From the sequence record OZ035744.1: DNA of 64,000 nt; one strand, 5' to 3'. The stretch's first letter is position 1. Each line of letters opens with the position of its first letter. Source of the DNA: Felixounavirus LF110P1. Under the pieces are notes generated by a model. The model saw nothing but the letters and a program-made list of their open reading frames with translations, was not told the DNA's origin and did no database searches. Below are positions 26,208 to 63,736 of the stretch, in pieces. Made by a program: the position numbers and the translations under genes.

Positions 26208-26507
26208 TTAATCTGCCAGCCTTAAATTGAAATTAACACCAAATTTTTCACATACCCCCAACATATACTCAAGGGAAACATTCCCAGTGAGGTGGATTAT
26301 GTTGGATACACGAGCCTGAGAGATACCACAAATTTTAGCAACTTGCTCTTGAGAAAGACCTCTGGATTTAATCTCTCTCTTAAAACGATGTGCAACGAAG
26401 TCTCTCATTTCGTCTACATCCATTGGACAAATATAACTCTCCATTTCAGCCTCTCTATCAGCCTCCCAATCATCTTGTGGGGCATAAGGGTCAAAAACCT
26501 CATTCAT
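26208..26507 (-). CDS. Helix-turn-helix (XRE-like) DNA-binding protein; start at 26507 or 26537
   Basis: C-terminal LSQEQVAKICGISQARVSNIIH helix-turn-helix signature; acidic N-terminal region. Confidence 0.5.
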   Translation of the reverse strand: MNEVFDPYAPQDDWEADREAEMESYICPMDVDEMRDFVAHRFKREIKSRGLSQEQVAKICGISQARVSNIIHLTGNVSLEYMLGVCEKFGVNFNLRLAD

Positions 26508-26712
26508 CTTTCTTCTTCCGTTTGCGTGAAGTGTCAATCAATGAGTCTATGTTAGTAGCCCTGACCTTTTCACGTTCATCGTTAAGATAATCGTCAAGAG
26601 CCTTTTCAATCTGTGAATCATCTTGACAGATAACTGTAAAGACTGTAAAGCCGTCTGTATCGTCAATTATCTTACCATAACCGCTTCTGGGATGTAACTT
26701 TTTAAGAGCCAT
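26500..26712 (-). CDS. Small hypothetical protein upstream of and coupled to the HTH gene
   Basis: 70 aa; 8-nt overlap with the ATG of the HTH ORF; basic C-terminus SRKRKKKDE. Confidence 0.4.
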   Translation of the reverse strand: MALKKLHPRSGYGKIIDDTDGFTVFTVICQDDSQIEKALDDYLNDEREKVRATNIDSLIDTSRKRKKKDE

Positions 26713-27097: not shown

Positions 27098-27222
27098 AAT
27101 GACCTCAAAGTTATATTAAATTTTGTATTACATTGAGTATAAAAATAAGCTATAACACCTGACTTGTCAACAGATTTTATAGCTTATTTGGCAGATTTTT
27201 TATAAGGCTACTGCCATCCTTC

Positions 27223-27460
27223 CATACATTACCTAACCAAGCCTAACATCACACAACCAGACCGAGCCGCACCCCGCCTTATTAAAAGACCCTCTTAAAG
27301 ACCTTTTAAAAAGGTAAGTCTCATTTTAATGTAGTTGAGACTAACTACCCATACCATACCTTACACCGCCGTACCACACCGAACATCACCAAACCATACC
27401 AAGCCAGAGCCTACTGTACCATACCGAACATCACTTAAAAACCCTCTTAGAAGACTCTTA
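27223..27460. repeat. Two degenerate tandem copies of a C/A-rich, G-poor element with a 19-bp direct repeat
   Basis: GTACCACACCGAACATCAC (27371-27389) and GTACCATACCGAACATCAC (27416-27434); TTAAAAGACCCTCTTAAAGACC (27282-27303) and TTAAAAACCCTCTTAGAAGACT (27435-27456). Confidence 0.5.
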
Positions 27461-27521
27461 AGTGATGCTGGTGAGTACCCGTTGGTTTATGCTGCTCAGT
27501 ATACTCACCAAATTTTCTATG

Positions 27522-27710
27522 TCAACAACTTTCTAATAAAGTTTTATGAAGACTTTGCTTAACAACCCGCCTCACATGCCTATGCTCTTTCTTAATAAAG
27601 AGTGACCTCTTCTTGACAGAGCGCCTATTCTTGTAAGTATTACTAGGATACTTATCATGAACCGGACAACAACTCCCCGGATTTGTAAACTTGATAATCT
27701 CTCTTTTCAC
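27522..27710 (-). CDS. Small basic protein (possible; coupled to ligase stop)
   Basis: 62 aa, Lys/Arg-rich; ATG overlaps the ligase stop by 1 nt. Confidence 0.3.
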   Translation of the reverse strand: MKREIIKFTNPGSCCPVHDKYPSNTYKNRRSVKKRSLFIKKEHRHVRRVVKQSLHKTLLESC

Positions 27711-33164: not shown

Positions 33165-33194
33165 ACATTACTGCAAAAAATTATAAAAAGCAAG

Positions 33195-33223
33195 TTGACA
33201 ATGCACTTGACAAGGTGTTAATC
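33195..33223 (+). promoter_or_regulatory. Candidate sigma70-like promoter(s) in the divergent control region (two overlapping TTGACA boxes)
   Basis: TTGACA at 33195-33200 and 33207-33212; weak -10 TTAATC/TAATCT at 33218-33224; AT-rich region follows. Confidence 0.35.
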
Positions 33224-33330
33224 TTTGCGAAGTGGGTTTTTACTTAAAAGGTTACTTAACAGTTTAACTATACAGATACTTTAAATCTCTTAAAAGATTA
33301 TTTAATAGCTTTTAAAAAGCTTTAAAGTAT

Positions 33331-33347
33331 AACGTATAGAATACGTT
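33331..33347. promoter_or_regulatory. Palindromic candidate operator AACGTAT-aga-ATACGTT
   Basis: 7-bp inverted arms with 3-bp spacer in the AT-rich region between the polymerase and the first plus-strand gene. Confidence 0.3.
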
Positions 33348-33391
33348 AAGATAAAAGATTAAAACTTAATAGTTACTTAAAAGAGGCTTAC

Positions 33392-61945: not shown

Positions 61946-62731
61946 ATGGGTATTGTAAAAATCATCAATGGTGATATCTTTGCTGCATTTGATAAAGGTA
62001 AGTTTGACATCATTGGTCATGGTTGTAACTGCATGAACCTAATGGGCGCAGGTATCGCTGACAAGATTTCTAAACTTTACCCAAAAGCATATGAGACCGA
62101 TACAGAAGTTTATCTCTATGCAGGTGGTATAGGTCACAAACCCTGTGAGAATTTACTAGGTAATTTCTCTGTAGCACGCTTAAAACAAGGTCGTATAGCT
62201 AACCTTTACACTCAGCTTAAGACTGGTAAAGATGCCCGATACAGTGCTTTAGAGTCATCTTTGAAACAGCTTAACAGATACTGTGAAGTTAATCAGTTGA
62301 AGAAAGTTGGTTTACCTATGATTGGTGCAGGTATCGGTGGACTTGACCCTCAAGCCATCACAGTTATCATCAATCAGGTGATGAAGAGTGTAGATGTTTA
62401 TCTGTATGTCTATGAAGGCGAGATGTACCACAAGTTACGCTCAGGTTGGAAGAACTACTGTGAACCAGAATACTTTGCAGGTGTAGCAGTGTTCACAGAT
62501 AACGCAGTTACCCTCTTCAGACGAAGAAAAGGTAAGATACATCAAAGTAACCCTCCGGTTGAAAAGATGTCTCTAAGTAACGCTCTAGTTACCCACCTGT
62601 CAAAGAGCAATCACAGAATTGCTGTAACATTTGGTAGTGATGCAGAAGCTTATATCTATGCAAGAACTGATGAGGATATCGAGGCAATCTTCTCTTCACC
62701 AGAAGTTACCTTCTTAGACGCAAAGAACTAA
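61946..62731 (+). CDS. Macro domain (ADP-ribose binding/processing) protein with a C-terminal extension
   Basis: INGDIF...DIIGHGCNCMNLMGAGIADKI and KVGLPMIGAGIGGL resemble the two macro-domain binding loops (VNAAN...GGGV and PAISTGIYG). Confidence 0.6.
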   Translation: MGIVKIINGDIFAAFDKGKFDIIGHGCNCMNLMGAGIADKISKLYPKAYETDTEVYLYAGGIGHKPCENLLGNFSVARLKQGRIANLYTQLKTGKDARYSALESSLKQLNRYCEVNQLKKVGLPMIGAGIGGLDPQAITVIINQVMKSVDVYLYVYEGEMYHKLRSGWKNYCEPEYFAGVAVFTDNAVTLFRRRKGKIHQSNPPVEKMSLSNALVTHLSKSNHRIAVTFGSDAEAYIYARTDEDIEAIFSSPEVTFLDAKN

Positions 62732-62804
62732 GAAACTCTGTAGTATATTCACAATAGCCTAAGCCTTTCTTATCTGGTAAATTTTTCAGGTAAGGAGGGC
62801 TTTT

Positions 62805-62984
62805 TCATTTTAGAATTGTGCAGGTAGAGTTCTGTAGAGAAATCTGTAGAGAGAATTTTGAACTCCAAAGAGAAAATTCATTTTCAAACTGTGCAGGTAA
62901 TCTCCAAAGAGCTTTTTCATTTTCAAAACGTGCAGACCCCGCTCAGGTCGGGCAAGAAAAATCATTTTAGAATTGTGCAGGTAG
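62805..62984. repeat. Four iteron-like direct repeats, consensus TCATTTT(AG/CA)AA(T/C)TGTGCAGGTA
   Basis: Copies at 62805-62827, 62878-62900, 62917-62938, 62962-62984; also tandem CTGTAGAGA at 62831-62839 and 62843-62851. Confidence 0.6.
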
Positions 62985-63000
62985 GTTTTTATAGACAGCC

Positions 63001-63040
63001 AGCCCAACACCTCTCCCCCTCTTACTCCCCCTCTCCCAAA
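63001..63040 (+). other. Polypyrimidine C-rich tract
   Basis: CCCAACACCTCTCCCCCTCTTACTCCCCCTCTCCC on the plus strand, G-rich on the minus strand. Confidence 0.5.
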
Positions 63041-63159
63041 AAGTCAAGAGAAAAATTTGTAGCGGATTGAAAAATAATTCTTGATTTGCGTTCTGTTTTG
63101 TGGTAGTCGTGCGCACCCGTTTCATTACAGTTTTGCCAAAAATATTTTTAAAATTTTTA

Positions 63160-63188
63160 TTGACTCTTTGAACGTGGTTATCTAATAT
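63160..63188 (+). promoter_or_regulatory. Sigma70-like promoter TTGACT-17-TAATAT
   Basis: TTGACT 63160-63165, 17-bp spacer, TAATAT 63183-63188, preceded by an AT-rich UP-like region. Confidence 0.5.
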
Positions 63189-63251
63189 TTACATCAACGG
63201 GGAGGGAATGACCTTCCCCACTAAATAAAATCCTAAACTGGAGATTCAAAA

Positions 63252-63440
63252 ATGGCATCAAGAAAAATTAAAGTTGGCGATGAGGTTAACATTAAGCACG
63301 AATACTCTTACAAAATGCTAACTATACGCTCTTATAAGGTTTATCAGGTGGAAGCTATCCACAAAGATAATACTTTTTCCTTAAAAGGGTATAGCGAACG
63401 TTTCCCTGCTGAACTCTTTGAGAAATGGAGCGCGAAATAA
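63252..63440 (+). CDS. Hypothetical small protein
   Basis: 62 aa; GGAG RBS. Confidence 0.35.
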   Translation: MASRKIKVGDEVNIKHEYSYKMLTIRSYKVYQVEAIHKDNTFSLKGYSERFPAELFEKWSAK

Positions 63441-63646: not shown

Positions 63647-63736
63647 AAGTACTTTACATGGGGCTTATAGTTCGATAAAGTAAGCCCCAGATAAAGAGCT
63701 TTACCAAATTAACCCTTAAACTAGGAGATTCAAAAA

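Follow-up and report, generated by a model that had tools for sequence, protein, structure and literature searches.

What is the function of a 520-bp interval in the genome of a Felix O1-type phage that separates two genes and carries four copies of a short direct repeat, and is this arrangement a replication origin, a control site or something else? The interval in question occupies positions 62732-63251 of a 64,000-nucleotide stretch of Felixounavirus LF110P1 (sequence record OZ035744.1), the whole of which is referred to here as the window. The gap region was 99.5% identical to that of Escherichia phages ekra and LF82P2, and the window and the LF82P2 record were colinear starting at base 1, identifying the window as the first 64 kb of an 85-88-kb Felixounavirus genome (subfamily Ounavirinae, Felix O1 group), records of which by convention begin just 5' of the large terminase gene. 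As stated in a preliminary description of the sequence, the gap is non-coding, and it is exactly the interval from the stop codon of a gene for a macro-domain protein (61946-62731; a T4 Tk.4-like 'phosphatase') to the ATG at 63252 of a 62-codon early gene. The accompanying statement that this is the longest non-coding stretch in the window was roughly correct, with a single rival at 27098-27709, which measures 612 bp without an open reading frame (ORF) of at least 80 aa and approximately 440-460 bp when a small gene annotated in Bas63 is counted. Judged from sequence features, the four repeats are very probably sites for a sequence-specific DNA-binding protein.

Both the presence of four direct repeats and their irregular spacing were confirmed. 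The + strand holds four matches to TCATTTTNNAANTGTGCAG, at 62805, 62878, 62917 and 62962, with start-to-start distances of 73, 39 and 45 bp, compared with a mean of 0.11 matches per shuffle and none of 100 shuffles reaching four. Five A/T bases precede every unit, and the resulting array, W5-TCATTTT-N6-GTGCA(GGTA) x4, spans 62800-62983 as follows.

62800-62826, + strand: repeat 1, TTTTT TCATTTT AGAATT GTGCA GGTA
62873-62899, + strand: repeat 2, AAAAT TCATTTT CAAACT GTGCA GGTA
62912-62938, + strand: repeat 3, TTTTT TCATTTT CAAAAC GTGCA GACC, with a divergent 3' flank
62957-62983, + strand: repeat 4, AAAAA TCATTTT AGAATT GTGCA GGTA

The repeat consensus initially given holds for copies 1, 2 and 4, which end in GGTA, but not for copy 3 (CGTGCAGACC), which deviates from it by a T-to-C change before GTGCA and in its 3' end. 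The units are non-palindromic and bipartite, with a length of 18-27 bp, or about two helical turns each. A scan for further copies, as the preliminary description had recommended, found the bipartite motif confined to the array in the complete 85.6-kb LF82P2 genome; the other places in relatives that were matched by BLAST stem from a promoter-hairpin-ribosome-binding site (RBS) cassette at the right edge of the gap and not from the repeats.

The array is conserved across the subfamily. BLAST matched the gap in 288 phage records, compared with 297 records holding a major capsid protein at least 60% identical, and the loci that were read have a common layout, in which the macro-domain gene is followed by a terminator and then by four units. 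The spacing varies by lineage, being 73/39/45 bp in Felixounavirus, 75/41/45 bp in Mooglevirus and 37/37/39 bp in Kolesnikvirus, and a subset of Felixounavirus, including BPS17L1, phiWec174 and VpaE1_ev035, is without copy 2 (spacing 75/45). Among the Erwinia phages (Kolesnikvirus), the repeats are the sole part of the gap that can be aligned by BLAST. A distant uncultured relative, L029, in which the macro protein is ~46% identical and the neighbouring genes are syntenic, carries an array of four to five units (...TTCATTTTAAAAACGTGCATAGG). In IMG/VR, the pattern was matched only in contigs of 84-93 kb and in three of 51-73 kb, L029 among these contigs and every one of them with an Ounavirinae-type array. 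The consensus from 114 distinct units is W4-5 T CATTTY NRAWWY GTGCA K R. Over 29 distinct four-copy arrays, mean column identity was 0.98 in the half-sites, a figure inflated by the way in which the arrays were collected, 0.85 in the six bases between half-sites and 0.87 in the spacers, the last of these being free of that bias. Third codon positions of the adjacent gene had a mean identity of 0.77, below that of both the half-sites and the spacers of the array. That the array outscores neighbouring synonymous sites points to selection acting on it, spacers included.

The same architecture appears with other sequence in Pectobacterium phage Arno18, an unclassified member of the Ounavirinae (capsid identity 59%) that does not contain the TCATTTT-N6-GTGCA motif. 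At the same position, Arno18 carries four copies of a different 33-nt unit, TCACATTGCAAAACTCGTTGGAAAAAAGTGCTC, which is unique in its 91.7-kb genome and resembles the units of other lineages only at its right end (GTGC..TAGG). The copies are spaced at 89/47/47 bp, in a layout that again has a long first gap. Ahead of the array are the macro-domain gene and then a GC-rich hairpin and T-run, which by eye resemble a terminator but were not called by the terminator scan, and a G-rich tract comes after the array. Retention of the architecture with replacement of the sequence is the pattern expected if the sites co-evolve with a phage-encoded binder, and the replacement of one four-copy repeat by another at the same place bears out the 'iteron-like' multi-site character that was first attributed to the array. 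An exact Chi octamer, GCTGGTGG, also lies approximately 75 bp past the last Arno18 repeat, where the sequence is unusually rich in G and C (L093 9030-9050).

Several other identities for the array were considered and rejected. Folding z-scores of -0.04 and +0.85 relative to shuffled sequence, with both strands folded, do not indicate a structured RNA, and the best Rfam match had an E-value of 0.42 at a permissive threshold, far under the gathering score and at chance level. The ORFs that run across the repeats vary by record and are without family matches, and the reading frame shifts between repeats, as spacers of 73, 41 and 37 bp are not multiples of three. The 'hypothetical protein' calls placed over the array in many public records, on differing strands and in differing frames, are almost certainly spurious; they include L008 4079-4394 (bas63_0096/0097), L006 1616-1840, L014 460-738, L012 751-978 and L096 2714-3066. 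In the window, DnaA boxes with at most one mismatch all lie clear of the repeat units: the two 8/9 matches in the gap fall outside them (62745 and 62989), and the units themselves are only 6/9 matches by manual comparison (TACCTGCACA vs TTWTNCACA); all four Kolesnikvirus units hold 8/9 DnaA boxes (CTATGCACA, TTATGCACG). In a scan with the IHF consensus, IHF-like matches were no commoner in the gap than in the rest of the window.

No similar arrays were found in plasmids or Escherichia coli genomes. Beyond the Ounavirinae, pattern scans of genomes and metagenomes returned probably unrelated 21/42-bp tandem arrays in metagenome-assembled genomes (MAGs) of Bacteroidota and Ignavibacteriota, which were treated as coincidental pattern matches given their position beside ordinary chromosomal genes. 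These arrays form a repeat family of their own, dispersed and intergenic, with a period of 21 or 42 bp, the TCATTTT-N6-GTGCA pattern and several arrays per genome, and were located in L050, L053, L054 and L058 (Prevotellaceae), in L051, L055 and L056 (Ignavibacteriales), and in L047/L062, L066, L074, L084 and L090.

The rest of the gap is made up of the following features, all but the first of which lie 3' of the array.

62761-62802, + strand: intrinsic terminator hairpin of the macro-domain operon, a 17-pair stem with 6 GC pairs, then a T-run
62999-63037: C-rich, G-poor tract, C-rich on the + strand and hence with G-runs on the - strand; a variable module
63038-63105: conserved 68-bp block, AAAAGTCAAGAGAAAAATTTGTAGCGGATTGAAAAATAATTCTTGATT...CTGTTTTGTGGTAG, with a mean identity of 0.91
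63120-63160: AT-rich tract, within which 63131-63160 is 90% A+T
63160-63188, + strand: strong sigma-70 early promoter, TTGACT-17-TAATAT
63199-63251, + strand: hairpin of the 5' untranslated region, GGGGAGGGAATGACCTTCCCC, and GGAG ribosome-binding site, serving the first small early gene (ATG 63252)

The terminator, which the preliminary description did not mention, has a T-tail (62803-62811) that overlaps repeat 1; it is recorded as rho-independent in the ASO1A and KhF3 records and has a mean column identity of 0.90. Between it and the first strong early promoter, the gap is probably untranscribed. The tract reported after the repeats as a 35-nt polypyrimidine run is present as a C-rich tract of 39 nt but contains no clean 35-nt run, its near-pure pyrimidine part (63006-63037) being ~30 nt with two A's. 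It is the least conserved segment of the gap, with a mean column identity of 0.60, and the sequence in this place after repeat 4 is C-rich in the window, Mooglevirus and Kolesnikvirus, its counterpart on that strand in Bas63-type phages, L060 and Arno18 being rich in G. The 68-bp block, which is common to Felixounavirus and Mooglevirus and cannot be aligned in Kolesnikvirus or L029, is more conserved than the first two codon positions of the neighbouring gene. The segment 63131-63160 has the highest A+T content of all 30-mers in the 64-kb window and lies ~150 bp from repeat 4; it also serves as the upstream element of the promoter, and the AT-rich tract is a candidate UP element or unwinding element. 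The promoter was correctly called, with 9/12 matches to the consensus and an existing annotation in the ASO1A record. Its -35 element lies 177 bp 3' of repeat 4 in the window, and all lineages keep the -35 element 171-206 bp beyond the last repeat, even where the DNA in between has been replaced.

The right edge of the gap recurs elsewhere. The cassette repeat was found at 63240 and 63724, and gap positions 460-520 match four more downstream sites in LF82P2. As a unit, the cassette of promoter, GC hairpin and RBS (CTAAACTGGAGATTCAAAAATGGCAT) precedes successive small early genes at 63160-63251 and 63653-63736 in the window, with copies at 65771, 66142, 67039 and 67389 in the LF82P2 record (L010).

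Tentatively, the leading mechanism for the array is that of a replication origin of the iteron type, whether the only origin or one of several. Iterons, as bound by two-domain initiators such as plasmid Rep proteins, are non-palindromic, bipartite units, and the order of elements in the gap, from repeats to a G/C-run tract, the most AT-rich 30-mer of the window and a strong promoter, fits such an origin. In L029, a 120-bp A+T tract with TTAACA repeats lies directly against the array. An origin-binding factor, probably phage-encoded, would occupy the four bipartite units (TCATTTY-N6-GTGCA) to form a nucleoprotein platform, and the bound complex, together with the adjacent G/C-run element and transcription from the strong early promoter, might then open the extreme A+T tract, onto which the T7-gp4-like primase-helicase of the phage would be loaded. 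The original suggestion of an iteron-type origin or operator thus stands in part: the multi-site array is unique and conserved in position, number and core, but neither an initiator nor a cognate regulator was found.

A number of observations weigh against an origin at this locus. Phages with T7-type replisomes are known to use transcription-based origins without iterons. The repeat spacing is irregular, at 37-75 bp, compared with the contiguous 20-23 bp of classical iterons, and the gene 3' of the array is not conserved, differing between lineages. No initiator or origin-binding family was detected by Pfam and PHROGs scans of 34 ORFs covering the array flanks and the replication block, although a novel initiator may exist. 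In the PhageMaP study, the region of Bas63 at ~46-66 kb was called uniformly non-essential; the Bas63 array (64.14-64.32 kb), over which the bogus genes g96 and g97 are annotated, falls inside this stretch, so that insertions there seem to be tolerated. The + strand GC skew drops rather than rises rightward of the array, and skew was accordingly rejected as an origin signal, since it tracks transcription and is not origin-like. Finally, there is a rival origin-like region at 33165-33391, where a 100-mer reaches 82% A+T, the maximum for the window. This gap separates the DNA polymerase gene (- strand) from the divergently oriented primase-helicase operon (+ strand), and it contains many TTAA/ACTTAA motifs.

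Three phage proteins were considered as the binder and rejected. The HTH_3 regulator (26208-26534) is not co-distributed with the array. The C-terminal extension of the macro-domain protein (61946-62731) comprises ~100 residues that are little conserved among genera, and L029 keeps the array while missing the extension. The primase-helicase has no obvious additional DNA-binding domain. The macro-domain protein has the motif EVYLYA / DVYLYV / EAYIYA three times.

The position of the array on the physical map was established from records that carry their genome ends. The E9 record has an exact 580-bp repeat at both ends (L095 1-580 = L096 end), at least six more Felixounavirus records from other laboratories begin at the terminal segment of E9 and carry it twice, and Erwinia phage M7 has an exact 444-bp repeat at both ends in the homologous place (L097 1-444 = L098 end). 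The terminal repeat is non-coding and rich in TTAACA in its first part and TGTTAAG in its second, often 11 bp apart, with 17 copies in the 580-bp repeat compared with 1.45 per kb in the window. The cluster of small + strand early genes immediately precedes it, which places the array at the inner edge of a right-terminal early cluster. From the array to the right end, the distance is 6.8 kb (7.8%) in E9, 7.7 kb (9.1%) in M7 and ~4.2 kb in LF82P2, corresponding overall to 4.9-9.1% of the genome, and only small, self-promoted early genes lie beyond the array. These exact direct terminal repeats (DTRs), 6-7 kb downstream of the array, also led to rejection of the array as a genome terminus or pac site. 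For UAB_Phi87, a DTR of 608 bp has been published (PMC4837284); the ends of that record overlap in the tRNA region, unlike those of at least seven records with the repeat in the TGTTAAG-rich segment, and the array is internal under either placement of the ends. The 83.4-kb record of phage Andreotti (L003 1-289) starts inside the gap, at the C-rich tract, and a start at a repeat-rich gap points to an assembly break and not to a real end. The + strand GC skew falls from ~+0.13 to ~0 at the array (LF82P2, L009+L010, 62-68 kb; 62.7 kb in the window), although the genes on either side of the array are all on the + strand, and the terminal early cluster is compositionally distinct from the rest.

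Of the explanations other than an origin, a regulatory or boundary element is possible, if on balance unlikely. A phage early or middle DNA-binding protein would occupy the four sites, either to separate the rII-macro transcription unit from the terminal early cluster, as a roadblock or an insulator, or to seed the repression of the early promoter next to the array, and perhaps of the whole terminal cluster, at the early-to-middle switch. Such a role is favoured by the location of the array exactly at the junction of two transcription units, after the terminator and 5' of the first early promoter, by the distance to the -35 element kept in all lineages despite the replaced sequence, by the shift in GC skew at the array and by the apparent tolerance of insertions in PhageMaP, which fits a non-essential regulator site. 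However, the sites overlap no promoter, the nearest -35 element being that 177 bp downstream of repeat 4, ~15 other downstream early promoters are without such sites, there is no other copy in the genome, and direct, non-palindromic repeats are unusual for Cro/CI-type operators. The sole clear helix-turn-helix regulator in the window, the HTH_3 protein and the one candidate for which co-distribution with the array was tested, was present in 258 Felixounavirus/Mooglevirus records with no match in array-bearing Erwinia phages. The physical map raises another explanation, an improbable one, in which the array is a T5-like injection-stop or first-step-transfer boundary: the right end would enter first, the array would be held by a host or membrane-associated factor so that entry pauses, and the small early genes of the terminal 4-8 kb would be expressed before the remaining genome enters. 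The distances in E9 and M7 and the restriction of the outer segment to small, self-promoted early genes up to the genome end are consistent with this, as the T5 stop region is itself a conserved untranslated repeat region at 7.9%, and the type of DnaA box found in the Kolesnikvirus units is also given for the T5 injection-stop (bioRxiv 10.1101/866236). Against it, the literature consulted describes two-step injection for T5-like phages only, with no report found for Felix-O1-like myoviruses, the units in the window have neither a DnaA box within one mismatch nor more than the 6/9 matches noted above, and the array is without inverted repeats or palindromes of the kind that characterises the T5 region. 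Two elaborations of this explanation are more speculative still. The array may be the stop or anchor of T5-like two-step delivery in a contractile-tailed phage, with early proteins releasing held entry or chromosome exposure; alternatively, the array and the TTAACA-rich terminal repeat may be two halves of one end-organising system, a variant suggested by L029, in which array and TTAACA repeats stand side by side. In that relative, eight TTAACA copies directly adjoin the four-repeat array, within an adjoining A+T tract of 120 bp.

The two remaining explanations concern transcription and its products. The preliminary description had set against its own proposal the alternative that the repeats are ordinary -35/-10 elements of tandem promoters, which found no support, as no unit in the window passes a sigma-70 scan. 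A version of this, in which the units are tandem weak minus-strand promoters (-10 NAAAAT, the complement of ATTTTN) that yield leftward transcripts or sequester RNA polymerase, is very improbable. Sigma-70 scans of four lineages were inconsistent: in Erwinia phage phiEa21-4, two of the four units score as sigma-70-like on the minus strand (TTGCCA-17-TAAAAT, 10/12, and TTGCCA-17-GAAAAT, 9/12), but no unit of the window, Bas63 or Mijalis passes the same scan. In addition, the best-conserved element, GTGCA, would sit in the promoter spacer, the -35 positions are unconserved, and only the back side of the terminator lies downstream to be transcribed. It is scarcely credible that the array functions at the RNA level, with the repeats as protein-binding or processing motifs in a read-through transcript and the C-rich tract as a Rho loading site. 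The C-rich, G-poor sequence that comes after the repeats in the window would suit such a role, and Rho utilisation had been proposed for it at the outset, but the tract is 3' of a strong intrinsic terminator that also precedes the array, it is the least conserved segment of the gap and it is replaced by a G-rich tract in Bas63-type phages and Arno18; folding of the array was no better than shuffled on either strand, and there was no Rfam match.

Neither this instance of the element, nor its conservation throughout the subfamily, nor its location on the physical map appears to have been described, although the kind of element is familiar. Public records show only the terminator and promoter in the gap, or small ORFs called across the repeats. 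The repeats of the array are not in the list of repeats (24 bp or longer) given in the Felix O1 genome paper. Nothing was found in the literature linking the Ounavirinae to iterons or a replication origin, and in the literature searched no replication origin, early-gene control site or DNA-entry signal has been named for Felix O1 relatives. These are classic typing phages that are widely used in biocontrol and therapy, with Bas63 an emerging laboratory model, and the array is the best-conserved non-coding feature in the genome parts examined, present in essentially every sequenced member. It offers a defined 180-bp target for finding the binding protein, and could serve in tests of the site of replication initiation and of the way in which the terminal host-takeover cluster is kept separate from the rest of the genome. 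In phage engineering, it should be regarded as a cis element and protected from accidental disruption. The array is therefore worth a bench test, though it would not surprise a specialist.

The other long gap in the window, at 27098-27709, sits within the minus-strand block of replication and nucleotide-metabolism genes. It contains two ~90-nt tracts of the ACCATACC type that are C/A-rich and nearly G-free on the + strand, each of which is followed by a similar TTAAAAGACCCTCTTAAAGACC / TTAAAAACCCTCTTAGAAGACTCTTAAG motif.

Among known systems, iteron-type origins include that of phage lambda, with four O-protein sites and an AT-rich region, and the plasmid origins oriV of RK2 and pPS10 and oriR of P1. 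The array shares with them four non-palindromic direct repeats, each about two helical turns long and all at one locus, G/C-rich and A+T-rich elements nearby, a promoter alongside and a repeat sequence that is lineage-specific, as in Arno18. It differs in its 37-75-bp spacing, where iterons are arranged head to tail, in having no recognisable initiator gene, adjacent or elsewhere, and in an AT-rich tract that is ~150 bp away in the window, and its origin role is putative. The T7 primary origin lies ~15% from the genome end, has no iterons and acts by transcription through an AT-rich region. Both it and the array (5-9%) are near an end with short DTRs and at the edge of the early region, with one or more promoters and an A+T-rich stretch, and both phages have a gp4-type primase-helicase and a PolA-type polymerase; unlike the T7 origin, the array consists of iteron-like repeats, and its promoter fires away from them. 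The multi-site operators of phage regulators, such as lambda OR/OL and the phi29 p4 sites, similarly have clustered similar sites in an intergenic control region beside an early promoter, but the array has direct repeats and not dyads, does not overlap a promoter and has no cognate regulator identified. T4-type hyperplastic regions carry promoter-early stem-loop (PeSL) cassettes, and the promoter-hairpin-RBS module at 63160-63251 likewise recurs ahead of small early genes in a variable region; this likeness is limited to the right part of the gap, as the four repeats occur once and outside the cassette. The T5 injection-stop, which corresponds to Repeat Region 3 of the first-step-transfer DNA (bioRxiv 10.1101/866236), resembles the array in several ways: it is untranslated, contains repeats, borders a terminal very-early cluster on the inner side, is better conserved than nearby genes and has DnaA-box-like sequences, which in the case of the array are those of the Kolesnikvirus units. 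The T5 region extends over 1.2 kb, is composed of palindromes and nested inverted repeats and belongs to a terminal repeat of 10 kb (bioRxiv 10.1101/866236), whereas the array consists of four simple direct repeats located 4-8 kb inside a terminal repeat of 0.44-0.6 kb.

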